The notes beneath the pieces are model-generated. The model made no database searches. It was not told the DNA's origin and was given only the letters and a program-made list of their open reading frames with translations. DNA of 64,000 nt, from contig NC_092353.1 of assembly GCF_963676685.1 (NCBI RefSeq), positions 620,001 to 684,000 on the forward strand, given 5' to 3'. Within the stretch, counting starts at the first letter, position 1. Every line of letters starts with the position of its first letter. The translations under genes were made by a program, and so were the position numbers. Below are positions 27,901-59,853 of the stretch, piece by piece. Source of the stretch: Mytilus edulis. Its lineage: Eukaryota.

Positions 27901-30900
27901 ATACTGATGAGAAACAATTTTATATTTTTGTAGGTTCTAGCCAAAGTAAAGTGAACCTGTCGGATGATAGTCAAAGCATATTCCATGGTGGTGCTCCTGA
28001 AGGGTAGGAATTAATGTTATTCTTATTGATACAGAGCTTTAATTGCTGTTCTTCATCTCAAAGTCACAATGGATCATGTTAACCTTTAATATACCTAATG
28101 CACTGACAGTAAATAAGTAGTAGCTAGTATTTTGGTGGAATTAAAAAAGTGCAACATTTATAAATCACTTGATAAATGTAAATCAAAAATCCTCTCAGTC
28201 GATTATCGAAACTTATTCTGTAGTTTTTTTAATTTCAACCTATACCTATTTTTTGTAAGTACTGATGAAAATGGTTACTGTATCAGGTAATTAACGTTTC
28301 CTGCAAATAATAGATTAATTTGTGATGCACAGTTTACTACAAAACAAAATGATATAAGATTGCGCAAGTTGCTTGCTATGATATTTCTCAGTTCTATTTA
28401 TAAATGTTAAGTTAGGAAGTTTGATTGTGATGTGCTTTAGGAATTTACAAGAACATATTGGACCCGATGAAATGGAGACTGCACCAGTTATGATGGAATC
28501 TCATAAAGAGAAATATGTAACAGTGCGGGCCAACTCCTGTAGACCTGCCATGAGAAGTTATAGTAGTACACCAGAAATGAGGAGTCTGTCCAATCTTCAG
28601 TGGAAAAGGTATGGTCTACCACTATATGATAAGGAAGACAATTTAAAAATATTTGGTAATGAGAATTGGAACATATTTTGGTCAATTACTTTAAGCAAAA
28701 TTTTCATTGACTTCTTCCTTCAACATTATCTAGATGGTATAAAGTTTACACTCTTAATATTCTCGAGCTATCTCCCTTTCCAAATATAAAAATAGCTGAA
28801 TTTGCCATATATTTTCAAGCATCTGTGTCCTTTGGACACATTCTTTTATTAAAGAATTGTTAAAATTACACCTTGAGAACACAACTCCTCTGTGACCTTT
28901 TTATACAAAACTCTAATTGGTATGATTTTATGCCATCCATTTATACCTGCATTTTTATGCCCCACCTACGATAGTATTATGTTTTCTGGTCTGTGGCTCC
29001 GTTCGTCTGTGCATCCGTTCAGGTTAAAGTTTTTGGTCAAGGTAGTTTTTGATGAAGCTGAAGTCCAATCAACTTGAAACTTAGTAGACTTGTTGCTTAC
29101 GATATGATCTTTCTAATTTTAAAGCCAAATTAGACTTTTGACCCCAATTTCACAGTCCACTGAACATAGAAAATGAAAATGGGAGTTTCAGGTTAAAGTT
29201 TTTGGTCAAGGTAGTTTTTGATGAAGCTGAAGTCCAATCAACTTGAAACTTAGTAAACTTGTTGCTTATGATATAATCTTTTTAATTTTGAAGCCAAATT
29301 AGACTTTTGACCCCAATTTCACGGTCCACTAAACATAGAAAATGAAAGTGGGAGTTTCAGGTTAAAGTTTTTGGTCAAGGTAGTTTTTGATAAAATTGAA
29401 GTCCAATCAACTTGAAACTTAGTACATATGTTCCCTATAGTATAATCTTTCTGATTTTAATACCAAATTAGATTATTACCCAATTTCACGGTCCATGGAA
29501 CATGGAAAAGGATAGTGCGAGTAGGGCATCCATGTACTTTGGACACATTCTTGTTTAGACTATTTTTATAGGAGTCAGTGTTCTCCCCAGGCTGTTTTAG
29601 CGTCGCGGTACCGCGACGCTATAATTATTTTTAGAATGTAATTTTTCTCGTTTCTGTATGGCAAAGCCATGTCCTAAATTGTGAACTTTCATCTAATTAC
29701 CGCTTATGATCATAAAAAAATATATCACCGTTAATTGTAATCCCTTCAAGTCAGACAATAGAGGCAATTTAAAGAGATTACATAGTGTTAATTGCCCTTT
29801 GGGTGATAACTGGTTGGATACGAATACCCCAAGCTGTCACTTGTGACATGATTAATACCACGTGGTATGCAATCGCAAATTTCGACAAGGAGAAAATTAA
29901 ATCAGAAAATCATAAAATAAAGCAAAATATATGTTTGCAAAATGAAAATTCAAAGAAACAAACATTTTTTCTCTTTTAAAAAGAGATTGAGTCTTATCTT
30001 TTTATTACTTTCAAAATATTAGTATTACTTTCTTTCTCTTCCTATTACTAGTTGTAAATCGAGAGTGAAAATTTTGATTTTGAGCTATATAAGTTTTGAA
30101 CTTTCTTTAGAAAGTGATCATAATTGGCTTAAGCTTATGTTTCATCCATTTAATGCATTAAAAACGCCATATTCATTCCCAATCTCTTGTCAAACATTAT
30201 TTTATTTTCACATTTTTCATTGCTTTCGGCGGCCATTTAATATTTTAGTGTAAACTACTGATCGGAATTGGACCAGATATGACAAAAATCTGCATTTTAC
30301 AATAATAACTACATATCCACAAATGGCACAGTTGACAGAAAACTAAGCATTAACAGACTATTTATTAGATAACTTTGTTAAACATATATATCATTTTGAT
30401 AAAAAAAAGTTTTTTAATTTAAATTTTATTGCTAAATGATACTTTCTCTTCCCTTTTTTTTGGTTATACGAACCAGTGTTTTTTCCTACATATTTAGTTC
30501 AATTGTATCTATACACATATATTTTTATTTGGCCCAAGAGGAAAAAAATAATTCTGGAACTATAAATGAATATAGAAAACATAAACTGAAAATACTGTTA
30601 TCATGGTTTTAGTTTAATTGTATTCTCAGTTATGAATTCAACAACATAGACAGTGGCGGATCCAGAAATTTTCATAAGAGGGGGCCCACCGACTAACCTA
30701 AAGGGGGGCCCGCTCCAGTCCAATTTATGACAAAAATAAGCAAAGACCCATCGAAACAACATCTGATAAACAAATTTAATAATACTTTTAGATATTTGGA
30801 TGATATTTTGGCTCTCAATAATGACGACTTCAGTATGTATATTAATGAAATTTATCCTGTTGAACTTACTTTAAATAAAGCTAATACTAACAATGACCAC

Positions 30901-33900
30901 TGCCCTTTTCTCGATCTTGATATCTATATCACTAATGGAAAGCTGAATACTAAAATTTATGATAAAAGGGAGGATTTTTCATTTCCTATCGTTAATTATC
31001 CGTTTTTAGATGGTGACGTTCCCTTGTCACCATCTTACGGTGTTTATATATCTCAACTTGTACGATTCGCTCGTGTATGTAACAATGTTTTAGATTTTAA
31101 CGAGAGAAATTTATGTATTACTGAAAAATTATTACACCAGGGTTTTCGATATCACAAACTAGTCAAAACATTTACTAAATTTTATCATCGGTATAAAGAC
31201 ATCATTCGTAAATATAGCTCAACATGCAGACTTCTAATACGTTCAGGTATTTCACATCCAATTTTTTATGGTAATATTCTTTATAAAGCACAAAGGTGTC
31301 AGTATTCACCTCAGAAACTTACAAAACCTTTGAATAGACTTATTAAGAAGGGATATAATTACGATACTGTTGTCAAGTCATTAAAGATTGCATATTTTGG
31401 CGTTAATATTGAGTCACTGATAAGGTCTTTGCATTGGAACTAAACACATTTATTCTAAAAACAGTTGTTGGCATGACACGGGTTATGTTCTTCTCATATA
31501 TGTTATGATGGTATGATACTAAACCCCTAACGGGAAGGATTGTGCCTGATGTTCATATGATGAAATCATAATCTTTCAGTCAGTTTAGTTGAAGTCTGGA
31601 GCTGGCATGACAGTTAACTGCTAGTAGTCTGTTGTTATTTATGTATTATTGTCATTTTGTTTATTTTCTTTGGTTACATCTTCTGACATCAGACTCGGAT
31701 TTCTCTTGAACTGAATTTTAATGTGCGTATTGTTATGCGTTTACTTTACTACATTGGTTAGAGGTATAGGGGGAGGGTTGAGATCTCACAAACATGTTTA
31801 ACCCCGCCGCATTTTTGCGCCTGTCCCAAGTCAGGAGCCTCTGGCCTTTGTTAGTCTTGTATTATTTTAATTTTAGTTTCTTGTGTACAATTTGGAAATT
31901 AGTATGGCGTTCATTATCACTGGACTAGTATATATTTGTTTAGGGGCCAGCTGAAGGACGCCTCCGGGTGCGGGAATTTCTCGCTACATTGAAGACCTGT
32001 TGGTGACCCTCTGCTGTTGTTTTTTATTTGGGCGGGTTGTTGTCTCTTTGACACATTCCCCATTTCCATTCTCAATTTTATCAGTGATTCCCTATATAAG
32101 CAACCAAATTTTTTCCCAAAAAAGGGGGGGCCCAGGCCCCCTGGGCCCCCCTAAGTCAGCCTCTGCTAGACACAAAGAATAGGGTGGAATAGAATATTTT
32201 ATTCACCAAATAAGGGCCTATAGCATACAAACAATATAATACATTTTGTAATAAACAATAAAATATATAACATAAAGGAAATAGAGCATTACCACGACGC
32301 GACAAATTGCATTGAAAAAAAATACAATTTATTTTTTACGCCAAATGTGATGCTATCCAAAATTTCTGGGGAATACACTGGGAGTCATGGTACTAAGACT
32401 CGTTTTTCATATATATTTAAAAGGTATTTTGAGAATAAAAAACAACACAACTCCTCTGAGAAGAAATGACAGAAAGCTTTCATGCTTAATACAATTGTTT
32501 GCTATAATATGTAGTGAAAGCTTTGCAGACGTCCATCTGTTTTTTGTTGTTGCAAATATTCATTTTATACTTGTCTCAGCTACATGTCGCCAGGTAAATA
32601 TAAAAAAGAAGATGTGGTATCATTGCCAATGAGACAACTGTCCACAAGATACCAAAATGACACAGACATTGACAACTATAGGTCACCGTACGGCCTTCAA
32701 CAATGAGCAAAGCCCATACCGCATAGTCAGCTATAAAAGGCCCTGATAAGACAATGTAAAACAATTCAAACAAGAAAACTAACGGCCTTATTTATATAAA
32801 AAAAATGAACAAAAAACCAATATGTAACACATAAAAAAGCGACAGCCACTGAATTACAGGCTTCTGACTTGGGACAGGCACATACATAAATAATATGGCG
32901 GAGTTAAACATGTTAGCGGGATCCCAACTCTCCCCATACCTGGGACAGTGGTATAACAGTACAACATAAGAACGAACTATAAAAATCAGTTGAAAAAGGT
33001 TTAACTCATCAGATGGACAAAAATACAAGTGGACGTGGCCGGGTACTTATACATCCGACACAAAAAGACACAATGAACAGATCTGAGAATACTCACAGTG
33101 ATCTGACAGCTAGTTCAAATACACTAAAAACTAATAAAAAAAATCATGCATCTAAGACTAAACTATCAATCCGTACCCATCCAACATCCAATGGATTTAG
33201 TGTAAAGACATCATAAACAGCCAGAGAAAAACATGACCTTGTGCAATGCCAAGTTCCAGGTATTACACAAACTCAATTTGTGATAGTTAAACTCTTAATG
33301 GACGTCCAAAATCTTCAGATACAATACAGTTATCTATTAATTCTATTATTGTTGTCACAGGAAAGACATTGGTGTACCACAGAGAGTAAGGAAGCTTAAT
33401 TTACCATTCACAACAACAGCTGAGGAAGAAGAAGATGAAGAGGGAGTTGAAGATATGGATACAATGGCTGGTTTTACTCCACTAGAACCTCAGGCTAGTT
33501 GTAAGTAAAATACCTTGAAAAAGCCTCAGGCTAGTTGTAAGTAAATTACCCCTTTAGAGCCTCAGGCTTGCTCTAAATAAATTACCCCATTAGAGCCTCA
33601 GGTTAACTGTAAATGAATTAACCTATTAGAACCTCAGGCTAGTTGTAAGTAAAATACCCCACTTGAACCTCAGGCTAATTGTAAGTACCGGTAAACTACC
33701 CACTAGAACATCAGGCTAGTTGCAAGTCAAATATCCCCACTAGGGCCTCAGGCTAGTTGTAAGCAAAATACCACACTAGATTTACAGGTAATATAAAATT
33801 ATGGAGATGTGGTATGATTGCCAATGAGACAACTATCCAACAAAAAAATGATTCATTTTACTTTTTTGTGAACAAGAACTTCCCCACAAGTTGTGGGTAG

Positions 33901-39900: not shown

Positions 39901-42900
39901 CACAGTTCTTACGTGCGAATCATTTCATGGTTCACCTGTACCCATGTAATCCATGAAAATTAATATCCAACAAGTAAGAATGAATCCACAATACTAAGTT
40001 AAATCATTTTTGTGGAGCCTTTGACTTAAGTCGAAAAAGCGAGACTAAGCGATCCTATATTCCGTCGTTGTCATGGTTGGCGGCGATGGCGTCCATAAAT
40101 TTTCACTCTGTGGTTAAATTTTTTAAAATTTTAATTTCTTTCTTAAACTGTCCTGGATTTCTACCAAACTTGGACAGAAGCTTGTTTATGATCATAAGAT
40201 AGTATACAGAAGTAAATTTTGTAAAAATAGAATTCCATTTTTTCCATATTTTACTTTTAAATGGACTTAGTTTTTCTGCCAGGAAATATTACATTCACTC
40301 TGTGGTTAAAGTTTTTAAAATTTTAATAACTTTCTTAAACTATCCTGGGTTGGTACCAAATTGGACAGAAGCTTTTTTATGATCATAAGATAGTATCCAG
40401 AAGTAAATTTGTAAAAAAATAAATCCATTTTTCCGTATTTTACTTTTAAATGGGACTTAGATTTTCTGCCAGGAAACAACACATTCACTCTGTGGTTAAA
40501 CTTTTAAAATTTTTAATAACTTTCGTATACTCTTTTGGATTTGTACCAAACTTAAACAGAAGCTTGTTTATAATCAAAAGCTAGTATCTATAAGGAAATT
40601 TAGTTTTCTTCCAGTTAACATTACATTTAGTCTGCAGTTAAAAGTTTTTAAACATTTATTAGTTTCATAAACTATCCTGGATTTTTACCCAACTTGAACA
40701 GAAGCTTCTTACAATTAAAAGATAATATTAACAGGAATATTTTATTGATTTATTTCCTCATTTTTGTTGAGCCTGCGATTAACAGAAAGAGTAGGCGAGA
40801 CACTGGGTTCCGCGAAACCCATACAATTTTTTTTATATGAGCACATATTTTATGGACTTATATAAGCAAATTACCAGTTTATACATGTATTTTTTAGGTC
40901 TGATAGATTGTCCAACGTACCAATTTGTGCCACTCCAAGTGCCGTGCAGCAGACATCAATACCATGTACACCAAGTGTAAGTATTTATTTTCTGGATTAT
41001 AATTAGTGTACCACTTGATAAGTTTGATGATTTTGTACTGTTCAAGAGTAAGAACCTTAGCTACTGTAATAGTTACATTTTCTGTGGTATCCAGATATAA
41101 ATGATAAAATGACTTGACCAAATCTTTTTTGATAAAGTGACCATAAATTACAGGTCAAGTTCAACTGTTGATTGTAAATATTTACATAAATATTTACTAT
41201 AAAATTGTCCAAAAATCATCCCCTAAATAGAAATGGTTACATGGTGATTATTTTATAAGGTTCAAACAATATCATAAAAGAAAGAATGTTTACTTAATAG
41301 AATGTGTATAAAGATGTGAAGCTGCTGATATACAATAATTCAACCAAAAGTCCATCAAATAACACATTAGAGTATGTCAAATCAAGACTGACTTAACAGC
41401 ATGATCTATTATTTAATTTTCAGGTTATGCAGGATGTAGAAACTATCACAGTAAACAATGTAGTCTACATGATACTGGATTTACTTGGGAAAGGTGGCTC
41501 TAGTAAGGTAATTATAGTCAAAATAGTTAGAGAAAGGTTGTTGTAGTAAGGCAATCACATGTTTTTTGACATGCTGTGAAAAGTCAGCCTAAGTAAGGTT
41601 CAAAGAATGTACCTGTCCATATGACCTTTACCTAATTGTCCCTTTTTAAAGTTTTCATCATATGGTCATTTATTTAGTTGCTATAAGGAATACTTAAAAG
41701 TATTTTTGATTTTTTTGTATGATTTTTGGTGTACACTTAAGAGAACTGCAAACAGTAGTGTACAAAGTGTCACTTGACCTTACAATAAAACAGATTGACT
41801 TTTTATAAATTGTTCATCATACTTTTGCAGGTCTACCATGTACATGATTCCAAGCCTCCATCTAAAGCACTCAAAGTAGTCAACTTAAATGATGCCAATG
41901 AAGAAATAGTCAATGGTTACAAAAACGAAGTCAAGTTACTGCTACAGTTACAGTATTGTCCAAAAGTAATCAAACTATATGATTAGTAAGTAAAATGTCT
42001 AGACTTACAATACATGCGTCTTCCCTATAATCAAATACAATTTCTCAAGCAAGTCAAACAATACACATGTGGCCTCTCTGAAAACAAATCCATGTAAATA
42101 GCAAATCAATTAATACACATGTGTCATACTCTAAAGCAAGTCAGTTATTACACATGTGTCATCTGTGTAATTAAACCTATGCTTAGAGCAAATCAAACAT
42201 ACACATGTGTCCTCTCTGTTATACTCTAAGGCAAGTCAAATTACACATGTGTCCTCTGTAAATAAATCAGTCTTCATCAAGTCAAACAGTACACATGTGT
42301 CATCTCTGTATCAAATTCAATGTCTCAAGCAAGTCAAATAATACACATGTTTCATCTTTTATAATTTGGAGTCTTCCCCTGAAGTATTTTTAACCACAAT
42401 GATGTCATAACTGACCTGGCTGAACAAGTTTACATTGATAAAACAGCTGTAGAAAATGTATTCACATTTTTCTTGTCTGACTTGAACTAATCTTTTGTTC
42501 CTGTTGGTTTCAAAGCATGATAAGAGTTATTTTCAGCTTTGTGCTTATATTAAGTTCTTTTATTCTAAGTTATGTGTATTTCTTTCCTCATTATTCAGTA
42601 TTTATTTTTTCAGTGAGTACAGACCAGAAGAAAACAAATTATATATAGTAATGGAGTATGGGAACTGTGACTTTGCTCAGTTTCTGAAAGATAAAATAAA
42701 AGAAGATTGTAAACTTTCAGACCATTTGATCAAGTATTACTGGGAGTCTATGTTAATGGCAGTCCATGCTTTACATAAAGAAGGTAGGGGTCAAGGGTCA
42801 TGGTCAGACCATTTGATCAAGTATTACTGGGAGTCTATGTTAATGGCAGTCCATGCTTTACATAAAGAAGGTAGGGGTCAAGGGTCATGGTCAGACCATT

Positions 42901-45900
42901 TGATCAAGTTTTACTGGGAGTCTATGTTAATGGCTGTCCACGCTTTACATAAAGAAGGTAGGGGTCAAGGGTCATGGTCAGATAGTTTGATCAAGTATTA
43001 CTGGGAGTCTATGTTAATGGCTGTCCATGCTTTACATAAAGAAGGTAGGGGTCAAGGTCAGACCAGTTGATCAAGTATTACTGGTAGTCTATGTTAATGG
43101 CAGTCCACACTTTACATAAAGAAGGTAGGGGTCAAGGGTCATAGTCAAATCATTTGAAAAGTATTACTGGTAGTCTATGTTAATGGCAGTCCACACCTTT
43201 CATAAAGAAGGTAGGGGTCAAGGGTTATAGTCAGATGATTTGATCAAGTATTACTGGGAGTCTATGTACATGATGTAGATGGCTGTCCACGCTTTACATA
43301 AAGAAGGTAAGGGTCACTGTCAGATCACTGAAAGTCAAGTTCTTTTCAATAACCTAGATAAACATGCATGTGTTAAAGATATGGACCATATCTATTTTCA
43401 AGATAAGGGTATATTGTGCTCAGTCTGAATGTACATACAATATTTATCTTCATAATTTACAGGAATCATTCATTCAGACTTAAAGCCATCAAATTTCATC
43501 ATAATAGGAGGTGCCTTAAAACTGATAGACTTTGGTATAGCTAAATCTGTGCAACCAGATAAAACCAGTGTTCTGACTGAAATGCAGGTTGGCACATTAA
43601 ACTACATGAGTCCAGAGTCTATAGCAGATTATGGTTTAGATGAAAAACCAATGTATAAGGTATGATCATGTTGTAATTATCTCCCTTGTATTAGATATGA
43701 TCATAATTATAATTATCTCCCTTGTATAAGATATTATAATGCTGTTATTATCTCCCTTGAATAAGATATGATCATTATTATAATTACCTCCCATGAATAA
43801 GATATTATCATAATTATAACTATCTCCCTTGTATAAGATATTATGTTGTTATTGTCACTTGTTTCAGTTTTGGAATAGGACCCCAGTTACATGATATCAG
43901 TCCAGCCTACAAATGAAGTCCCTTAATAAATCAACTATCTTTCAAATGGGTTATTCTCTTAAATGCCAGTCATGACGCACCATGAACCATAAAGGGGGCT
44001 ACTAGTATGAGAAAATAAATAAAATTTTGTAGTCTTATATTGGGAATAAAAAATCTGCCTGTTAACTTGGATAAAATTGCATTGAAGTAATGGGGGATTA
44101 ATTGGGTCTTCATTCTATATAATCGCATGGTAATTATCTCCCTTGTATAAAAGAGGGGCGCAAGATACCAGAGGGACAGTCAAACTCATAGATTGAAAAA
44201 TAAAGCCATGGCTAAAAAAAAACAGACAAATAATAGTACACAAGACACAACATAGAAAACTAAACACTTAGTAACACAAGCCCACCAAAAACTGGAGGTG
44301 ATTTCAGGTGCTCCAGATAAGATATGATGTTTCCAAATACATAAATAAGATTTCCCTTACAGACAGTATGATGTTTTGAAGATGGACAATACATACAATT
44401 CTTTGTTACAGATAGGTGTGAAGAGTGACGTCTGGTCCCTTGGATGTATTTTATACAATATGGTGTATGGTTTTACTCCATTCCAAAGAATCAACAAACA
44501 ATTTGCCAAACTTCAGGCTATCACCAACTCCAGTTATGTTATTCATTTCCCAGAAATAGAGGACAAACGTCTGCTGGATGTCATGAAGGTTAGTAGGTTA
44601 TCTCCCCTGAAATAGAGGACAAACGTCTGCTGGATGTCATGAAGGCTAGTAGATTATCTCCCCTGAAATAGAGGACAAACGTCTGCTGGATGTCATGAAG
44701 GTTAGTAGATTATCTCCCCTGAAATAGAGGACAAACGTCTGCTGGATGTCATGAAGGCTAGTAGATTATCTCCCCTGAAATAGAGGACAAACGTCTGCTG
44801 GATGTCATGAAGGCTAGTAGGTTATCTCCCCTGAAATAGAGGACAAACGTCTGCTGGATGTCATGAAGGCTAGTAGGTTCCAAATAGAGGACAAACGTCT
44901 GCTGGATGTCATGAAGCTAAGTAAGTTCTCTTCCCTGAAATAGAGGACAAACGTCTGCTGGATGTCATGAAGGTTAGTAGGTTCCAAATAGAGGACAAAC
45001 GTCTGCTGGATGTCATGAAGCTAAGTAAGTTCTCTTCCCTGAAATAGAGGACAAATGTCTGCTGGATGTCATGAAGGTTAGTAGGTTCTCTCCCCTGAAA
45101 TAGAGGACAAACGTCTGCTGGATGTCATGAAGGTTAGTAGGTTCTCTCCCCAGAAATAGAGGACAAACGTCTGCTGGTTGTCATGAAGGTTAGTAGGTTC
45201 TCTCCCCTGAAATAGAGGACAAACGTCTGCTGGATGTCATGAAGGTTAGTAGATTATCTCCCTTGAAATAGAGGACAAACGTCTGCTGGATGTCATGAAG
45301 GTTAGTAGGTTCTCTCCCCAGAAATAGAGGACAAACGTCTGCTGGATGTCATGAAGGTTAGTAGATTATCTCCCCTGAAATAGAGGACAAACGTCTGCTG
45401 GATGTCATGAAGGTTAGTAGGTTCTCTCCCCTGAAATAGAGGACAAACGTCTGCTGGATGTCATGAAGGTTAGTAGGTTCTCTCCCCAGAAATAGAGGAC
45501 AAACGTCTGCTGGTTGTCATGAAGGTTAGTAGGTTATCTCCCCTGAAATAGAGGACAAACGTCTGCTGGATGTCATGAAGATTAGTAGGTTATCTCCCCT
45601 GAAATAGAGGACAAATGTCTGCTGGATGTCATGAAGATTAGTAGGTTATCTCCCCTGAAATAGAGGACAAACGTCTGCTGGTTGTCATGAAGATTAGTAG
45701 GTTCTCTCCCCTGAAATAGAGGACAAACGTCTGCTGGTTGTCATGAAGGTTACTAGGTTCTCTCCCCTGAAATAGAGGACAAACGTCTGCTGGATGTCAT
45801 GAAGGTTAGTAGGTTCTCTCCCCTGAAATAGAGGACAAACGTCTGCTGGTTGTCATGAAGGTTACTAGGTTCTCTCCCCTGAAATAGAGGACAAACGTCT

Positions 45901-48597
45901 GCTGGTTGTCATGAAGGTTACTAGGTTCTCTCCCCTGAAATAGAGGACAAATGTCTGCTGGATGTCATGAAGATTAGTAGGTTATCTCCCCTGAAATAGA
46001 GGACAAGCGTCTGCTGGATGTCATGAAGATTAGTAGGTTATCTCCCCTGAAATAGAGGACAAACGTCTGCTGGATGTCATGAAGGTTAGTAGATTATCTC
46101 CCCTGAAATAGAGGACAAACGTCTGCTGGTTGTCATGAAGGTTAGTAGTAGGTTCTTTTCCCAGGAATAGAGAACAAACGTCTGCTGGATGTCATGAAGG
46201 TAAGTAGCAGGTTATCTCCCCAAAAATAGAGGACAAGCGTCTGCTGGATGTCATGAAGGTAAGTAGCAGGTTATCTCCCCAGAAATAGAGGACAAACGTC
46301 TGCTTGATGTCATGAAGGTAAGTAGCAGGTTATCTCCCCAGAAATAGAGAACAAACGTCTGCTGGATGTCATGAAGGTTAATAGTAGGTTCTCTTCCCAA
46401 AAATAGAGGACACACGTCTGCTGGATGTCACAAGGTGGTATTAGGTTCTCTCCCCTAAACAAGGTATAAATGAATGAATAGAAATTATATGGAAAATTCA
46501 ATAAAAGAGATCTCATACCTATGCATCAGAAAGCATATGTATAAAGAAGTTTAAAACAACAACAAAAATAAATTAGGAGATAACTGTATTGTATTTTAAG
46601 TTTGGCCATCATAAAACGTAGATTTTACTGTCGCAAACTGAGTTTACCTAACGATACGTAGTGGAGCTAAGTACACATATCAAAATAAATTCCATTTGGT
46701 AAATACTTAAGCCAAAAATGCAAAAGTCTGAGAAACTGTTACATATTCTTTTAATAGTATACAACAATGTGAGGTCATATGTATGGCAAACATAAACACT
46801 AAAATTATTATTGTTTGCAGCTTATTATTTGGTTTAGAAATTACATACCCAAAAAAACAGAATTCAAAATGGTGGCTTTCTTTGTTACTGACTGGTAGAA
46901 CATATAATCTTATCCTTCTAAATATTTGTCAACGTTCAATGAAAATTATTGTTACAAACAAATTGCATTAAAATTTATCATTGTATCTGTACTTTCATGA
47001 TTATTTTGCAGTCCCATTTACTGATTTCACCAGTCAGAGTATTTGTTTAAAAATGACAAAGTTGATATAATTTTCTATTTTCAGTAAGATGTTTGCATAG
47101 TTTATTAGTTGCACTCCCCTACACTTAAAAATATTTAACATACAATTGTACAATATATGAAAACAAAACAAATATTATCCATCAGATTTCAATTATATAC
47201 AAGATATGTTATTCTTACTATTTTTAGAAATGTTTGATCAGAGATCCTAAAGTTCGACCAAGCATTGAAGATTTACTTCACCATCCATATCTGAAGAGGG
47301 AGAAAAAAGAAGGTATAAACTGATTAGAGCTATTGCTGATAAGTTTATCCACATTTCTGAAGAGAGCATTGTAATGTGTTTTGACTTCAATATTTAAAGA
47401 CTCTATTGTTACAAATATGTTGACAAAGTACCACTTGGGTAAAATGTTATAGAAAATGAAAATGAATGAAAAAAAAATCACAACATGACTATTTGATTAA
47501 TGAAATTAACTGTGTTTTACAGAACTAAGAAAAAATGAATCAAAATAGAATGGACTATATTATCCAATTGGTTTTTATTTTTTTCCCCTACAAAGTAAGT
47601 GTTGTATTCAAATTTTCAGCTTGCATTTTGTTTTACTTTCAGAACCATCAGTAGTAGACAAAAGAATAGAGAGACTTGTAGAAAGATTAGCAGATAAAGT
47701 ATCTTCCCCTAATACTCTACGCAGTCTACTAAGGAGTGAAATATTAAAGGTATTAATTATTGGCAATTTGTACTTTTTTCCTTTGATCTTACTGCTTGTT
47801 ATTAATTTGTATCATGTAAAGACCTGATACTTGAAAATATTAGGCATTTTTATGCCCCACTTAGGAGCATTATTTTTTCATTCTGTGCAGCCATTTGTCT
47901 GTTTGTCTTGCTTCAGGATAAAGTTTTCGGTCAAGGAAGTTTTTGAAGAAGTTGAAGTCCATTCAAATTGAAACATAGTACACATGTTCCCTGTGGTATG
48001 ATCTTTCTAAATTTAATGCCAAATTAGAGGTTTTACCCCAATTTAACAGTCAGTTTAACATAGAAAATAATTATGTACATTTTGATATGGTGTAGCTACA
48101 TTATTGATTATTGTGGATTCATTATTATTCTTTTAATACCAATTTTCATGGAATTTGTGGGTATAGGTATATATTGTTATTAAATGTTCAACAAATTACA
48201 AATTTCCAATAGGCTTTTATGTAGACTTTGGCAAACCACAAAATTAAATATCCATGAACATGTAAGTTTTCCCTAATCCATGACAATTGGTATTTACAAA
48301 TTCGAATGAATCCACAGTATCACTGTTAATTCAGAAATTTTTGTGATGTTTTTATTATCGCAACAATTTAAACTCGCATTTTGACATTTATTATATGAAT
48401 TAAACAGGATTTTTCTCAATATTGCAAAAATTAAAATCCCATTTCAGTAAAAAAAATGTCAAAATCACAATAATTTCTGATTTACAGTAATTTGATGAGA
48501 TAAAGAGTTAAGATAATTGTAAAAAAAACTTATTCTATAATTTCAGGGAATGTCAGCTGAAAGAGAATGTCCAGAAAACAAAGAAAATGTTCATTAA
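24926..48597 (+). CDS. TTK: Dual-specificity protein kinase TTK/Mps1 (spindle assembly checkpoint kinase); 18 coding exons, 930 aa
   Basis: GT-AG exons with consistent phases: 24926-24995, 25347-25498, 26018-26091, 26657-26766, 27297-27434, 27934-28003, 28441-28608, 33361-33500, 34252-35017, 40898-40976, 41424-41507, 41831-41985, 42614-42783, 43463-43659, 44412-44588, 47228-47312, 47643-47749, 48547-48597 (2793 nt including TAA). N-terminal TPR-like region ([37 protein letters not shown]). Kinase motifs [86 protein letters not shown] are typical of Mps1. Confidence 0.95.
28260..28286 (+). CDS. Candidate 27-nt symmetric (phase 2-2) alternative microexon of TTK (TDENGYCI)
   Basis: tattttttgtaag|TACTGATGAAAATGGTTACTGTATCAG|gtaatt; preserves the frame between exons 27934-28003 and 28441-28608. 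Confidence 0.4.
28953..29555. mobile_element. HINE-like interspersed repeat with three ~169-bp internal units (partial copy at ~47848-48070)
   Basis: caggttaaagtttttggtcaaggtagtttttgat repeated at ~29020, 29189 and 29358. Confidence 0.55.
30721..32082 (+). mobile_element. 5'-truncated Penelope-like retroelement (probably Naiad-type, RT C-terminal) with 3' UTR
   Basis: ORF 30727-31443 followed by ~640 nt of 3' UTR. The terminal motif gttgtctctttgacacattccccatttccattctcaatttta recurs at ~18272-18318. Confidence 0.75.
30727..31443 (+). CDS. C-terminal half of a Penelope-like reverse transcriptase (5'-truncated)
   Basis: FRYLDDI catalytic motif, [30 protein letters not shown]. The ORF stops with no downstream GIY-YIG domain. 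Confidence 0.75.
   Translation: MTKISKDPSKQHLINKFNNTFRYLDDILALNNDDFSMYINEIYPVELTLNKANTNNDHCPFLDLDIYITNGKLNTKIYDKREDFSFPIVNYPFLDGDVPLSPSYGVYISQLVRFARVCNNVLDFNERNLCITEKLLHQGFRYHKLVKTFTKFYHRYKDIIRKYSSTCRLLIRSGISHPIFYGNILYKAQRCQYSPQKLTKPLNRLIKKGYNYDTVVKSLKIAYFGVNIESLIRSLHWN
32600..33262 (-). mobile_element. Retroelement 3'-end fragment related to the Penelope-like 3' UTR
   Basis: Reverse complement shares aacatgtttaac.ccgcc..gcctgtcccaagtcag with 31790-31835. The tail motif gttgtctcattggcaatcataccacatct recurs at ~9900, ~22900, ~33805 and ~49810. Confidence 0.55.
36340..38045. repeat. ~120-bp tandem repeat with homogeneous core (36665-37340) and degenerate flanks
   Basis: gagaacttgtaaacggtcgagatccccacccctaaaccatat..aaatcaaatgaaataaagtgggagtccctttgggtcagcccc units. 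Confidence 0.9.
38512..38901. mobile_element. TTAA-flanked MITE (Kolobok-like GG..CC termini)
   Basis: ttaa|ggatgttcgct ... agcagacatcc|ttaa. Confidence 0.65.
40015..40833. mobile_element. HINE-like interspersed repeat with ~185-bp internal units
   Basis: Repeated cattcactctgtggttaaa..cagaagctt units; terminal gggttccgcgaaaccc stem followed by a T-tract. Confidence 0.5.
42717..43325 (+). repeat. 87-bp x7 tandem repeat spanning a TTK kinase-exon donor
   Basis: Unit is the last 67 nt of the exon + gtaggggtcaagggtcatgg. Confidence 0.95.
44548..46458 (+). repeat. 56-bp tandem array (~34 copies) spanning a TTK kinase-exon donor
   Basis: gaaatagaggacaaacgtctgctggatgtcatgaag|gttagtaggttatctcccct. 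Confidence 0.95.
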
Positions 48598-54812: not shown

Positions 54813-54835
54813 TTATAATCTAATTACTTACTTAC

Positions 54836-57800
54836 TTACTTACTGCCCGGTATGCCATCGGCATGTAGGGCAGCAACAAAGGTTCTCCATTTCTGTCTGT
54901 CTTTGGCCATCTTTTCTACTGTTCCCCATGTTTTGTTCATGGTTTTCAGTTCTCCTTCTACAGTACGCCTCCATGTGTTTTTTGGTCTTCCTCGCTTACG
55001 CCTTCCTTCTGGAGTCCAATGTAATGCTGTTCTAGTGATGGAATTACTATCTCTTCTGATGACATGTCCAATCCATTTCCAACGCCTTTTCACTAATATT
55101 GTACCCATGCTATTTTGCTGACACTGGTTTAGAAGATCTTCATTAGATATTTTGTTTGGCCAGAAAATGCGCAGGATTCTTCTTAAGCTTTTGGTATGGA
55201 AAACCGACAGTTTGTTTTGATCGACCTCTGTCATCCTCCAGCATTTTGATCCGTATAACAGAGTAGATAGTACACAACTCTGGTACAGTTTTAGTTTGGT
55301 CTTCTTACTATACTGGGATGATTTCCATACATTGTTAAGTGATCTAAATATATTCCTGGCTTTGTTCAATCTGTTCATTATGTCATTTCCTGCACCTCCA
55401 TCGTTTCTTATTGTACTTCCTAGGTATGTAAATGTTTCTGTGATGGGGAGATCTTTTCCATCTACTAGGATAGGAGTTGGGTTATTGATGTTAAGCGTCA
55501 TGACTTCAGTTTTGGTTTGGCTGATTTTAAGTCCAACTTGACTAGCAAAAGTGTTAAGGCGGTTTGTCTTCTCTTGTAAATGGTGGTGGGTATGAGATAG
55601 AAGAGCAAGATCATCAGCAAAATCAAGATCTTCTAATGTTGCTGAAAGGTTCCATCTTATTCCTCTTGGAGAATCTTCCATTGTTTTTCTCATTACCCAG
55701 TCAATGACGACATTGAAAAGAAGGGAAGACATCACACAACCTTGTCTAACTCCTGTTTTTACCTCAAACCAGATGTTGCTTTGCCCTACACTGCAAGTGA
55801 AATTGTTGTAGAAACTTTTAATGAGCTCAATTATTTCTTTTGGAATTCCATATGATCTGAGTATTCGCCACAAGGTCTTTCTGTTGATACTGTCAAAAGC
55901 CTTCTGAAAATCCACAAAGTTGATGTAAAGCTGCCTTTGCCATTCTGTACATTGTTCAATGATGTTGCGTAAAGCAAAGATTTGATCTATGCATCCTCTA
56001 CCTTTACGGAATCCTGCTTGTTCCTCTCTTAGCTGTTTATCAACTGCATCTATTATTCTTTGGATAATAATTTTGGCCATGATCTTACTTGGGATTGACA
56101 ATAGAGTTATACCTCGCCAGTTGTTGCAATCACTTAGAGCTCCTTTCTTTGCTAACTTTATTATTATGCCTTTTGTCCAATCGTCAGGTATAATTTTTCC
56201 TTTCCATATTGAAGTAAATAGAGATTGAAGAATTTCAGCTGCAAGTTCTGGGTCGACTTTGAAAAGTTCTGCATTTAGATTGTCCTGCCCTGGTGATTTC
56301 CCATTTTTTAATGCTTTTATTGCTGTTATTATTTCCTGTCTTTCTGTTAAGTTGGTATTTATTTCCAAATCTTCAAGTGCCTCAATTATAATTGCTTCTT
56401 CATCTGGAGCTGGTCTGTTGAGTACTTCTTGAAAGTGTTCTGCCCATCTGGCTTTTTGCTCGTTTTCTGTTGTCAATAGCCTTCCATTTTTGTCTTTTAT
56501 ATGGACATCATTATTGCTTCGAAATTTACCACAGATTTCTCTTGTTATCTTGTAAATTTTTCCCTGTTCACCCTTTTCAGCTGCTTCTTCTGCTTGTTTA
56601 GCAAGGTCTTCCATGTAAGCTCTTTTGTCTGCTCTAGCCATTCGCTTAACATTTTTGTCTAAAACTCTATAGGCTGCTTTGTGTCTCTCTTGTAGCCTTT
56701 CTGATTTTGTGTCCAGTATTTTCTTATTCATATGGCGTCTTTCTTCTATAACCTTCCAAGTACCTGGTGTTATCCATTTCTTCATCTTTTTGCCCTGCTT
56801 AAAACCAAGACAGTCCTGGCTAGTTGTTTCATATATTGTTCTTATTTGATCCCATTTTGTGTTGACTTCTGTTGTTTCTGATGGAACTATGTCAGGATTA
56901 TCTGTTAAAGCTTGAAACTTATTCTTCATTTGAAGGATGAATGCATTCTTTACTTTATGATCTTGTAGTTTTTCAATATCATAACGTGTAGGAACAAGTG
57001 TTTTACGTCCTGTACTTCTCAATTTCATTTTAATATTTGCAGTAACAAGGTGATGGTCACTGCCAACATCTGCTCCCCTCTTAACTTTGACATCTAGTAA
57101 TGAACGTCTCCATGTACCATTTATCATAAGGTGGTCGATCTGGTTCTTATCCCTTCCATTTGGAGAACACCATGTTAACTTATGAATATCTTGATGTGGA
57201 AAGAGTGTTCCTCCTACAACCAGGTTGTATGCTGCACACAATTCTACTAATCTTTCTCCATTATCATTTATAGTACCACATCCATGTTCACCTATTATTC
57301 TGTCCATATCAGTGTTGTTGTTTCCCACTTTGGCATTCAAATCACCCATCACCACTAGAAGATCATGACGTGGTACTAATCTCACTTCTGCTTGAAGTTG
57401 CTCGTAAAAGGTGTCTTTTGCAGCTTCATCACTGTCATTTGTTGGTGCATAGCATTGTATAAGGGTCATGTTGGTGTGTACTCCTTTCAATTTTGCTGTT
57501 ATCAGTCTACTATTAACAGGTTTCCATTCAATAAGTACCTTCTCAGTGCCTTTCTTGAGAATGATGGCTACTCCTTCAAAATGATGGTTGTCTTCTCTGC
57601 CTGAGTAAAGAACTGTTTCACCTGTGTCAGTTTTCATTTTACCAGAACCTGTCCATCTGCATTCACTGACTCCCAAAATGTGCAAGTTATATCGCCTCAT
57701 TTCTGATGTGACCTGTGCGAGTTTTCCAGTTTCATACATAGTACGTACATTCCAGAATCCTATTCTGGTTTTTGCTTTAGCGCTCAGCACTTCATTCCTG

Positions 57801-58012
57801 CCAGTAGCTTCCTTGCGGCTTTCACCACTGGCAATCATACTATTTACTTGAAGGCCTATTCGTAAAGCGGTTGTGTTTGATTCCTTTGTTGCTGTTTCCG
57901 TAACTTTAATCTTTTTATAGGATAGGGTTGTTGGCCCTATGCCAAACCCCCTGCTTGGAGGGCCAGGGATTTTTCGTCGAGGTTTCCTTCCTTTAGATAA
58001 ATTGCCTACCAA
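54836..58012 (-). CDS. RTE ORF: apurinic-like endonuclease + reverse transcriptase (1058 aa from TTG; first ATG at 57838)
   Basis: APE motifs GFWNVRT, LGVSECRW, YAPT, GDLNAK, IDH, SDHHLV. RT motifs NWRGITLLS, QAGFR, FVDFQKAFDS, GVRQGC, LDFADDLALL, YLGS. RTE-type C-terminus KRGRPKNTWRR. Confidence 0.95.
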   Translation of the reverse strand: MVGNLSKGRKPRRKIPGPPSRGFGIGPTTLSYKKIKVTETATKESNTTALRIGLQVNSMIASGESRKEATGRNEVLSAKAKTRIGFWNVRTMYETGKLAQVTSEMRRYNLHILGVSECRWTGSGKMKTDTGETVLYSGREDNHHFEGVAIILKKGTEKVLIEWKPVNSRLITAKLKGVHTNMTLIQCYAPTNDSDEAAKDTFYEQLQAEVRLVPRHDLLVVMGDLNAKVGNNNTDMDRIIGEHGCGTINDNGERLVELCAAYNLVVGGTLFPHQDIHKLTWCSPNGRDKNQIDHLMINGTWRRSLLDVKVKRGADVGSDHHLVTANIKMKLRSTGRKTLVPTRYDIEKLQDHKVKNAFILQMKNKFQALTDNPDIVPSETTEVNTKWDQIRTIYETTSQDCLGFKQGKKMKKWITPGTWKVIEERRHMNKKILDTKSERLQERHKAAYRVLDKNVKRMARADKRAYMEDLAKQAEEAAEKGEQGKIYKITREICGKFRSNNDVHIKDKNGRLLTTENEQKARWAEHFQEVLNRPAPDEEAIIIEALEDLEINTNLTERQEIITAIKALKNGKSPGQDNLNAELFKVDPELAAEILQSLFTSIWKGKIIPDDWTKGIIIKLAKKGALSDCNNWRGITLLSIPSKIMAKIIIQRIIDAVDKQLREEQAGFRKGRGCIDQIFALRNIIEQCTEWQRQLYINFVDFQKAFDSINRKTLWRILRSYGIPKEIIELIKSFYNNFTCSVGQSNIWFEVKTGVRQGCVMSSLLFNVVIDWVMRKTMEDSPRGIRWNLSATLEDLDFADDLALLSHTHHHLQEKTNRLNTFASQVGLKISQTKTEVMTLNINNPTPILVDGKDLPITETFTYLGSTIRNDGGAGNDIMNRLNKARNIFRSLNNVWKSSQYSKKTKLKLYQSCVLSTLLYGSKCWRMTEVDQNKLSVFHTKSLRRILRIFWPNKISNEDLLNQCQQNSMGTILVKRRWKWIGHVIRRDSNSITRTALHWTPEGRRKRGRPKNTWRRTVEGELKTMNKTWGTVEKMAKDRQKWRTFVAALHADGIPGSK

Positions 58013-58200
58013 GGCTGACGAACCATTATCTGCCCGTTTTTGGAGTTTCTTTCTCCTAGATAAATTACCTTCCTGGGTTAACGATTTTCATCTAACCGGC
58101 TATTTACCCATAGTTGGGGCAAGGTTAATGAGAGTAAGGGCGTGTCCACACGTCGGTGGGCCTACACTCTGCATCTTTAGGGCCCTTGCTGCTCCAAGAT

Positions 58201-58428
58201 CCTCTACAGTAAAGCCTGAGATGCTAGACCCCAGTTACCATGTGCTGTCGCGGGGAGGCACTGTAGAAGTCTTGACAGTGTAGAGGCTATGTACTGGCAG
58301 GAGAGGCTTACTCACTCGGCTCTCTCTTCGCTTACATATGTAGGCTAGCCAGCGGCAGCTGCTTTTTATAAAAAAAAACAGCCACACTAGACGCGTACTA
58401 CTGCCCTGTGGAACAACCACCAGCACAC
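58201..58428 (-). ncRNA. Candidate HDV-like self-cleaving ribozyme at the RTE 5' end (long J1/2)
   Basis: Minus strand: P1 GTGTGCT (58428-58422) pairs with AGCACAT (58246-58240) and is followed by GG. P2 CTTCTACAGT/ACTGTAGAGG. P3/L3 GCC-TCCCCGC-GAC. P4 CTGGGGT/ATCTCAG. The predicted cleavage site coincides with the element 5' end. Confidence 0.7.
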
Positions 58429-59740
58429 ATTATAATCTAATGGGAAGGATTATATGGTCATGAGTTTGTCAGTTTAATCTAATAAAAAGGATAGTAAAAC
58501 CCCTTTTCATTTTCGGGCATTTTTGGGGGGAGGGGGACATATAATTAATAATTCAAACCGGTATTTAGTGTGTGCGGATTGGATCCAGGTAGGCGTAGAC
58601 AGTGCCTCCATAATATAATAATTTTTATTTTCATTCATGAAAATTCATTACGTTTTTCACTTCTTTTTTTTTTATAAAATCGTCCAAATTTTGTTTTGTC
58701 TCGCTTTACTCGGCAGTAACTTAATCCGTCTAAGGAAGCACCCCTCCCCCTTTTAAAATCTCCATGGTCCTTCTTCTTCTTCTCTGGATCTTAACACCCT
58801 TTATAGGGTAACCATACTTTGTATGTCGAACAGTTCCACCACCAAAAAAATAATTGAAGAATAAATTAACAATCGTAACACAACATATATACACTATATA
58901 TACATTTTTTAAGTCTTTATGTGTTTATATAAAGGAGGTTTACAGGTTTTATTTTGACTTTTACATGGGAAGTTTACAGTTTTTAATACTTTTAACATGC
59001 AATTAAAGGAAAAATTAATATTTTTACTTTTAGCAATTATTTTTCATATTTTTTTTTTATTTTTGGTTTACTGATCAATATTTAATATGATAACATTTAC
59101 AGATTAGGTCACATATTCACTTTTTAGATAATTCACTTTTTAGATAATTTACAAAATGAAAAAGGCCAAGATTTTGGTCTTTGACCTTTAGGAATTCGCC
59201 TTTATATCTTTAAGGATAATTTGACACTAATTTATTCACTGTGTAGTATGAGTCCGCTTCTGGTAGTGATAATAATTTCCTCAAAAATAGCATTATCTCT
59301 AACAAATTCTCATTCTTATTAAAAACATGTAGGCCTAGGCCTATGCCTAAAATATTTATCAAATGTTGCTCTAGCCTGGTTGCAAAAGGCAAATTTACGA
59401 TAAATCTGGATATTTCCGAATGATTATTTTCTGAACTCCATGACCCATTTCTTTTCCCAGTCCCGTTGATGGGTTACGTTATGGATATGGATTCTAAGAA
59501 TTTCAAGGTTCATGAACATGTGAAATGCTGGCAGGTAAAAGGTTGACAACAAGGTGCTAGGTAAGTTCACATTAACTAATTACGTTGTGTAGAATTGGTG
59601 GTTCTTCGTAAAAGCAAACGAGATGTCATATGATTAAAAATTAGTTGGGAATTCCCACAACGTCAACAACAATATTATTAAATCGCCTCGTAAACACAGT
59701 TATACATGTAGCATGTATTTTCGGCATTATAGGGTTGTTA

Positions 59741-59853
59741 TAGCTGCGGAACCGTAGCTCTTAGGTCCTTATGTTATTTTTTGACTATTTGCGGATGGTC
59801 CGCAAATAGTCAAAAAATAACATAAGGACCTAAGAGCTACGGTTCCGCAGCTA
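59741..59853. mobile_element. Perfect-hairpin MITE (55-bp arms, 3-nt loop), TAG..CTA termini, 9-bp TSD
   Basis: 59741-59795 is the exact reverse complement of 59799-59853. gggttgtta is duplicated at 59732-59740 and 59854-59862. Confidence 0.85.

Follow-up and report, generated by a model that had tools for sequence, protein, structure and literature searches.

A predicted HDV-type ribozyme in the 5' head of a Mytilus edulis RTE LINE and the likely exchange of this head between RTE families

The DNA analysed here, which we call the window, is a 64,000-nt stretch of the Mytilus edulis genome (GCF_963676685.1, NC_092353.1, positions 620,001-684,000), and it contains on the minus strand an intact, TSD-flanked RTE-type LINE of 3,604 nt, at the 5' end of which the putative ribozyme is located, also on the minus strand. 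The boundaries and the coding part of the element are as follows:

58430..58441, minus strand: 5' TSD of 12 bp, repeated exactly at 54813-54824
58429..58429, minus strand: single extra T between TSD and G1, absent from the TSD; other copies lack it
54836..57838, minus strand: ORF of 1000 aa with AP-type endonuclease and reverse transcriptase, zero stops, Met at 57838
54825..54842, minus strand: (TAAG)n tail, overlapping the stop codon of the ORF
54813..54824, minus strand: 3' TSD, after the (TAAG)n tail

LINEs of the RTE clade possess a single ORF coding for an AP endonuclease and a reverse transcriptase, have no ORF1, are about 3.6 kb long and end in a short 3' UTR with a microsatellite tail at its end, with a TSD on both sides. 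The window LINE has the same build, namely one ORF with Pfam matches to an endonuclease (E 3e-8) and a reverse transcriptase (E 9e-38), no ORF1, a length of ~3.6 kb, a short 3' UTR, a microsatellite tail and TSD flanks. We take the element to belong to the RTE clade on the basis of its architecture and of putative catalytic motifs in this ORF; no named RTE reference was returned among the homologues of the ORF. With a stop-free ORF, a perfect TSD and its length of 3,604 nt, the element is as intact as the original prediction had it. The nearest genomic copy is 99.6% identical along the element and has the same core. Five nucleotides at position 58037, upstream of the Met codon, are missing from the window copy and present in contigs of four public sequencing runs, and a short upstream ORF of 8 codons starts at 58091 (58065-58091, minus strand). 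The best database protein for 54836-57838, named from a fish, shares 74% identity, more than any other family of this genome, for which the endonuclease gives 60% at most; this sequence match might be a hint of horizontal transfer. Exons with protein-kinase motifs that resemble those of TTK/Mps1 are found at 42620-47300 on the plus strand, so that the LINE lies antisense, ~7.5 kb past the last kinase exon found. A frame at 42486-43070 encodes a short peptide in four repeats.

The first 228 bases of the element can be folded into the pairing of an HDV-type ribozyme. Read on the minus strand, all parts that had been predicted are present, and P1, P2, P3, P1.1 and P4 follow each other in the order of the nested double pseudoknot:

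58422..58428, minus strand: P1 5' strand; the element begins with G1 (58428), where cleavage is predicted
58270..58421, minus strand: J1/2 peripheral domain, 152 nt; 20/48 predicted pairs change on both sides, the structure being taken from the same alignment
58260..58269, minus strand: P2 5' strand, 10 bp with 58210-58201; U16 is 58260
58247..58259, minus strand: P3 (GCC/GAC) with L3 TCCCCGC; C18·A29 mismatch at 58258/58248, U20 and G25 in L3
58238..58246, minus strand: P1 3' strand (58246-58240) and the GG of P1.1 (58239-58238)
58216..58234, minus strand: P4 hairpin, 7 bp, 58234-58228 with 58222-58216
58211..58215, minus strand: J4/2 GCUUU(A) with the candidate catalytic C (C75 equivalent) at 58214
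58201..58210, minus strand: P2 3' strand
58173..58200, minus strand: conserved hairpin directly 3' of P2; 3/9 pairs change on both sides
58100..58113, minus strand: conserved 5' UTR block, the commonest break between head and body (nt ~326-331 of the element)

P1 comprises 7 bp (58428-58422 with 58246-58240) with a G1·U pair at its base, and P1.1 has two pairs. The adenosine at 58210 may either pair with U16 or serve as a J4/2 adenosine. J1/2, at 152 nt close to the ~150 nt first estimated, is predicted to start with a small hairpin 1 base after P1, followed by a multibranched domain which closes 4 nt before P2; on its own it is not unusually stable (z -1.2). In the covariance search that had been suggested, Rfam (E up to 5, 10 and 3) returned zero HDV-like or other ribozyme families. 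Two deviations from the HDV consensus, the C-A mismatch in P3 and the J4/2 sequence, had already been pointed out, and both are indeed found here.

A ribozyme of this kind would be expected to mark the start of the element, and this part of the original prediction agrees well with the other copies in the genome. Sixty longer stretches were taken for a comparison of head-bearing loci, 42 of which passed the head-start anchor (the placement being probably wrong in three) and 27 of which have a TSD adjacent to the tail; locus L042, a duplicate of L043, was left out of these and of the core-position counts. Of the 27 copies bounded by a TSD, 25 have their start at most 3 nt from G1; since the loci were selected for the head, this count tells us where intact heads start and not which fraction of copies is full-length. 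The TSD abuts or overlaps G1 in 18 copies, 1-3 extra nucleotides are found in 7, and 7 and ≥12 extra nucleotides in the remaining 2. G is kept at position 1 in 22/27 copies, conservation ends at -1 (T 23, G 8, A 7, C 4; n=42), where the base does not resemble a cap-like G, and no sequence upstream of G1 is shared among the copies compared. As predicted, G1 of the window copy is one base away from the TSD, which ends at 58430; the intervening T at 58429 is likely an untemplated base. In one contig from a public run, G1 borders immediately on a flank that occurs once in the assembly, as an empty site, but as only 29 letters of this flank are available (below our bar of 31), the junction is just a hint of recent mobility; its second flank was not found. 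Another contig (X17) covers the upstream flank of the window element (58430-58650) and has other sequence from 58430 on, possibly reflecting an empty allele, and a further one (X16) spans the junction at 58430.

The head is repeated many times in the genome. A search with the 5' region, in which 40 of 228 candidates were scored, returned 30 loci; by our count by eye, 22 of these, including the window and one duplicated pair, reach the P1 strand and 8 break off within the head. The P3-L3 motif has 64 exact matches in the genome compared with 0 for the reversed control, so that it is not a chance motif, and a pattern allowing a Watson-Crick P3 has 63 matches (60 GCC/GAC, 2 GCC/GGC, 1 GTC/GAC) compared with 1 for the control. 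For counts of core positions 37 copies were used, excluding three loci (L124, L128 and L129) in which the head start is unaligned. U20 and G25 are each present in 37/37 copies and also in all 30 BLAST-selected loci, although, with loci picked for holding the head or the core, part of the L3 invariance is by construction in those selected by pattern. The candidate catalytic cytosine is kept in 36/37 copies, which on its own is weak evidence as 123 of 286 alignment columns are invariant. The base following it is free (T 17, A 13, C 4, G 3); in the HDV-type core the equivalent base is the flipped-out G76, as described in PMC6326823, and this agreement counts for an HDV-type core.

That the pairing itself is under constraint is indicated by the changes between copies, one of the checks proposed at the outset. 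In 19 copies aligned by sequence only, the core pairs form in 94.5% of the cells compared with 29-49% when the partners are slid, and both sides change in 7/29 core pairs (P1 1, P2 3, P4 3), the alignment not having been fitted to the structure. The number of double-change pairs was reached in 20/500 shuffles and the number of pair types in 490/500, and the kinship of the copies inflates such measures; support from these 19 copies is good but not overwhelming. In 20 more diverse copies both sides change in 33/86 pairs, a number reached in 0/500 shuffles, with 3/7 in P1, 4/10 in P2 and 3/7 in P4, so that P1, P2, P4 and J1/2 all covary.

The two deviations were originally left as either a variant fold or an inactivated copy. 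By script, 68 cores were found, of which one (L080) was false, leaving 67 for the P3 tally, and 63 could be parsed for J4/2. The middle pair of P3 is C·A in 62 of the 67 cores, C-G in 4 and U-A in 1; a fully Watson-Crick P3 is typical of HDV-like ribozymes but not strictly required, and the window copy lacks it. In J4/2, position +1 varies freely, U stands at +2 in 53 of the 63 cores, +3 is U in 34, A in 24 and C in 5, and +4 is A in 57; an A is present at +3 or +4 in 62/63. The CUUUA of the window is found in 14/63. Both deviations are hence common to copies and families and not a decay of the window copy, which makes it hardly credible that they arose after insertion and inactivated this one ribozyme: the window copy does carry both, but its ORF is intact, its TSD is perfect, and contigs from four public runs have zero substitutions in 58201-58428 where they cover it. 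The variant fold is the part of the original choice that stands, and copy-specific inactivation can be rejected.

Between families the core varies in a graded manner. A Watson-Crick P3 is found in family J, mostly together with CUAA; of its four copies with such a P3, three have C/U-U-A-A as their J4/2, and in one copy with a TSD the core is fully canonical beneath a homologous J1/2. Family C combines a C·A P3 with CUAAA and a P1.1 of one pair. J4/2 reads CUUUA in family A, to which the window element belongs, mostly CAUAA in families B, E and H, CAUUA in I and K, and CCUUA in D, and is one base longer in F and G, in which the A is still at +4. U16 is invariant in 37/37 copies including those with U at +4. 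The association between A at +3 and A at +4 has a Fisher p of 0.026, which we do not count as evidence because the copies are related. An order of events in which the C·A mismatch came first and the J4/2 change later was considered and dropped, as the head tree has no root and is not resolved at its base. P3 C·A pairs may already be present among published HDV-like ribozymes.

In structures of the HDV and CPEB3 ribozymes, the last adenosine of J4/2 makes a type I A-minor contact with C18-G29. As the C·A found here is the pair that receives this contact, we infer that both deviations touch one and the same tertiary contact, which by analogy would either be lost or be remade by A79 at +4. A descriptor of HDV-like ribozymes asks for CRRA in J4/2 (PMC6326823), and the CUUU of the window does not match it at +2 and +3, with its A at +4. 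HDV-like ribozymes have merely five nucleotides conserved, and an active R2 ribozyme is described as carrying a P3 mismatch (PMC3774820).

It is conceivable, though we consider it unlikely, that the fold is real but that the families with C·A and CUUU no longer cut usefully, in which case the end would be set otherwise, either by an internal promoter with its start at G1 or by an exonuclease that halts at P1, and a protective cap or translation element would be what the structure is kept for. Family A is without both J4/2 purines at +2 and +3, and cap-like protection and IRES-like roles have been described for such folds. In pseudoknot-free folding, G17 and C75 of the window copy pair with each other at 0.9, P1 is at ~0 in all 20 sequences and P3 forms only in a family J copy (0.83); as this model is without pseudoknots, it reveals a competing, inactive fold but not its share. 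Against this stands that the candidate catalytic C is retained beside its free neighbour in 60/63 parsed cores (the exceptions being two substituted copies and one parse in a deleted region), that the 18 of 27 junctions mentioned above have no extra base and that extra bases are mostly T, and that the partner of G1 at position 37 can be C or U (G-C in 11, G·U in 6 and other combinations in 3 of 20 copies). We therefore favour the reading, which we hold with good confidence from sequence comparison, that the 228-base head of this intact 3.6-kb RTE keeps the HDV pairing and would likely free the RNA of the element just before G1; the head of the window copy is very probably an HDV-type ribozyme for 5' processing that works or nearly does.

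We propose that host read-through transcription would supply RNA containing the element, in which C58214, the putative general acid, would act in cleavage just before G1, leaving a 5'-OH G1. The structured J1/2 and the 10-bp P2 would pinch P1 and P2 together and in this way offset a core weakened by C18·A29, while the J4/2 A-minor contact would be lost, or made by the +4 A in a junction that is one base longer. Target-primed reverse transcription would then run to the 5'-OH end and at times add 1-3 untemplated bases. Such a head would not depend on which RNA follows it and could for this reason be passed from one RTE family to another, through template switching or gene conversion at conserved blocks of the 5' UTR.

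A homologous head is in fact found on eleven RTE families in this genome. Protein trees were made from 22 copies of ten families, 15 of the 37 copies being left out for too little protein or as near-duplicates; the eleventh family, K, is represented by two TSD-bounded copies whose ORF reaches 36-48% identity with the others when the best local matches are taken. Identity among the ten families amounts to 35-64% for the endonuclease and mostly to 65-83% for the heads, but some pairs are far more alike in their heads: 98% nt compared with 50% aa in the endonuclease for L050/L116, 90% nt and 52% aa for L111/L114, and 93% and 51% for L121/L116. L213 and L121 are 92-100% identical across the first 350 nt and 93% over 514 nt, after which identity falls to 60%. 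Such change points, at nt 326 (97.5% to 62%), 453 (92% to 59%) and 514 (93% to 60%), lie at or near conserved 5' UTR blocks. The head tree groups F with G (100/99) and E with H (100/98), whereas the protein tree groups F with I (100/100) and G with J (100/99). In AU tests, for groups named after the trees had been inspected, the protein clades were rejected on the head data (p 7e-8 to 0.006) and the head clades on the protein data (p 2.5e-55 to 3e-5). A second family E copy, L206, has the same core-side head and body, so that this family is not a one-off chimera. The conflict between the trees and the breaks at nt ~326, ~453 and ~514 suggest that heads have likely been swapped between distantly related RTE families. 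The head of family A is 69-81% identical to all others and has no sign of a recent swap.

Alternatively, purifying selection on an old common 5' UTR could have kept the heads alike without any exchange. In every pair of families the heads resemble each other more closely than the coding parts do, for example 81% compared with 65% for the window and L045, and selection therefore does act; it leaves unexplained, however, why the variable nt 50-100 are 98% identical in L050/L116 and 56-70% in unswapped pairs, why identity breaks off in steps, and why the head and protein trees have conflicting clades. We regard selection as the sole cause as very improbable and retain exchange of heads as the likely explanation.

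Four further loci (L210, L211, L215 and L220) carry the head on bodies that are at most ~70% identical in nucleotides to all ten reference families, and additional head-bearing families beyond the eleven are likely. Copies of ~600 nt from four families (L038, L040, L112 and L046) consist of the head and 5' UTR joined to a 3' tail of their own family, with TSDs in the first three and none in L046; they resemble the bipartite non-autonomous RTE derivatives, made up of 5' UTR and 3' tail, that are described in PMC5786205. A 550-nt 5' fragment of family A (L034) has a 13-bp duplication and is without a tail, which suggests priming inside the RNA. In L126 and L127, and also L094 and L110, L3 ends in U, and identical upstream flanks are found at different places, so that one insertion has probably been multiplied inside a larger repeat; about 10 further pattern matches share the L126/L127 core.

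Relatives of the element were also found in metagenomes, at 73 loci, 52 of which have enough upstream DNA. A strict HDV descriptor, run without a positive control, had 0 matches in these 52 loci, and a looser one (positive control 22/37) gave 3 rows in two loci (L158 and L183), none of them convincing. One metagenome locus, L138, has the same head but lacks part of the core. Eight others (L131, L134, L145, L153, L155, L158, L163 and L183) have downstream 5' UTR motifs in common with the window element and have at their start another head, rich in G+C, ~130 nt long and similar among the eight, in which no HDV fold was found by descriptor; an Rfam ribozyme match was found in 0/7 scanned.

HDV-like ribozymes at the 5' end of RTE and other non-LTR elements have been reported, with a proposed role in the release from host co-transcripts (PMC6765202, PMC5786205). 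The window head is like these in its nested double pseudoknot and in that G1 is the first base of the RTE, and differs from them in the family-wide C18·A29, the pyrimidine-rich J4/2 and the presence of one homologous head on eleven families. With drz-Agam-2-1, in the account of PMC4908430, it has in common a large structured J1/2, short linkers and an extended P2 (10 bp here, 12 bp there); a J1/2 that opens close to P1 and closes shortly before P2, as predicted here, is also what activates drz-Agam-2-1. It differs in that J1/2 is here predicted as a separate hairpin and multibranched domain, and in that no Rfam ribozyme model matches. As for the R2 ribozymes described in PMC3774820, the core is conserved little beyond the catalytic C and four positions, and the P3 mismatch of an active R2 ribozyme and untemplated bases at 5' junctions also have their parallels here. 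R2 is however specific for rDNA and often uses 28S sequence as P1, while P1 of the window head is all element-encoded and insertion is dispersed. RTE bodies of plant LINEs also change their 5' UTRs, for which template switching has been proposed (bioRxiv 10.1101/2022.11.04.512097); these are non-homologous promoter-type UTRs cycling within a subfamily, and the word 'ribozyme' is absent from the text of that preprint, whereas here homologous ribozyme heads likely move between families ~50% identical in protein. Thus RTE 5' HDV-like ribozymes, large J1/2 domains, 5'-end switching of RTEs and bipartite derivatives are already published, and what appears to be new is the core series with C·A and variable J4/2 and the head common to eleven families, partly at 90-98% nt. 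In a search of titles and abstracts, outside of which lay primary papers on HDV-like ribozymes and RTEs such as Ruminski 2011, none was found that describes a C·A P3 with a U-rich J4/2 or an exchange of ribozyme heads between RTE families.

One genome thereby offers a natural series from a canonical P3 with CUAA, through C·A with CUAA, to C·A with CUUU, CAUA, CAUU or a five-base junction, and as all of these stand under a homologous J1/2, the tolerance of the HDV core to a loss of the A-minor contact and the compensation by J1/2 become directly testable. The mosaic of heads and bodies points to a trade in processing modules among promoter-less LINEs, comparable to the trade in promoters among other LINEs. 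Going further, one might tentatively speculate, as a possibility that we rate below even chances, that the head is a portable 5'-processing cassette which RTE bodies, horizontally transferred ones included, capture from resident elements at conserved UTR blocks, and that its core is a rewired HDV active site with a C·A receptor, a J4/2 adenosine shifted by one base and a dependence on the 152-nt pinch domain, which Rfam and strict CRRA descriptors miss, so that counts of such ribozymes in animal genomes would be too low. RTE UTRs and HDV-type 5' modules are described as being in use for RNA-based gene insertion, and a portable head is therefore also of practical interest.

Two other features of the window may be mentioned. 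A near-perfect palindrome of 110 nt at 59741-59851, with miRNA-model scores below the gathering scores, is probably a MITE-like repeat, and a 248-aa frame on the plus strand at 30697-31443, with an RT-like YLDD motif, is probably a fragment of another retroelement.
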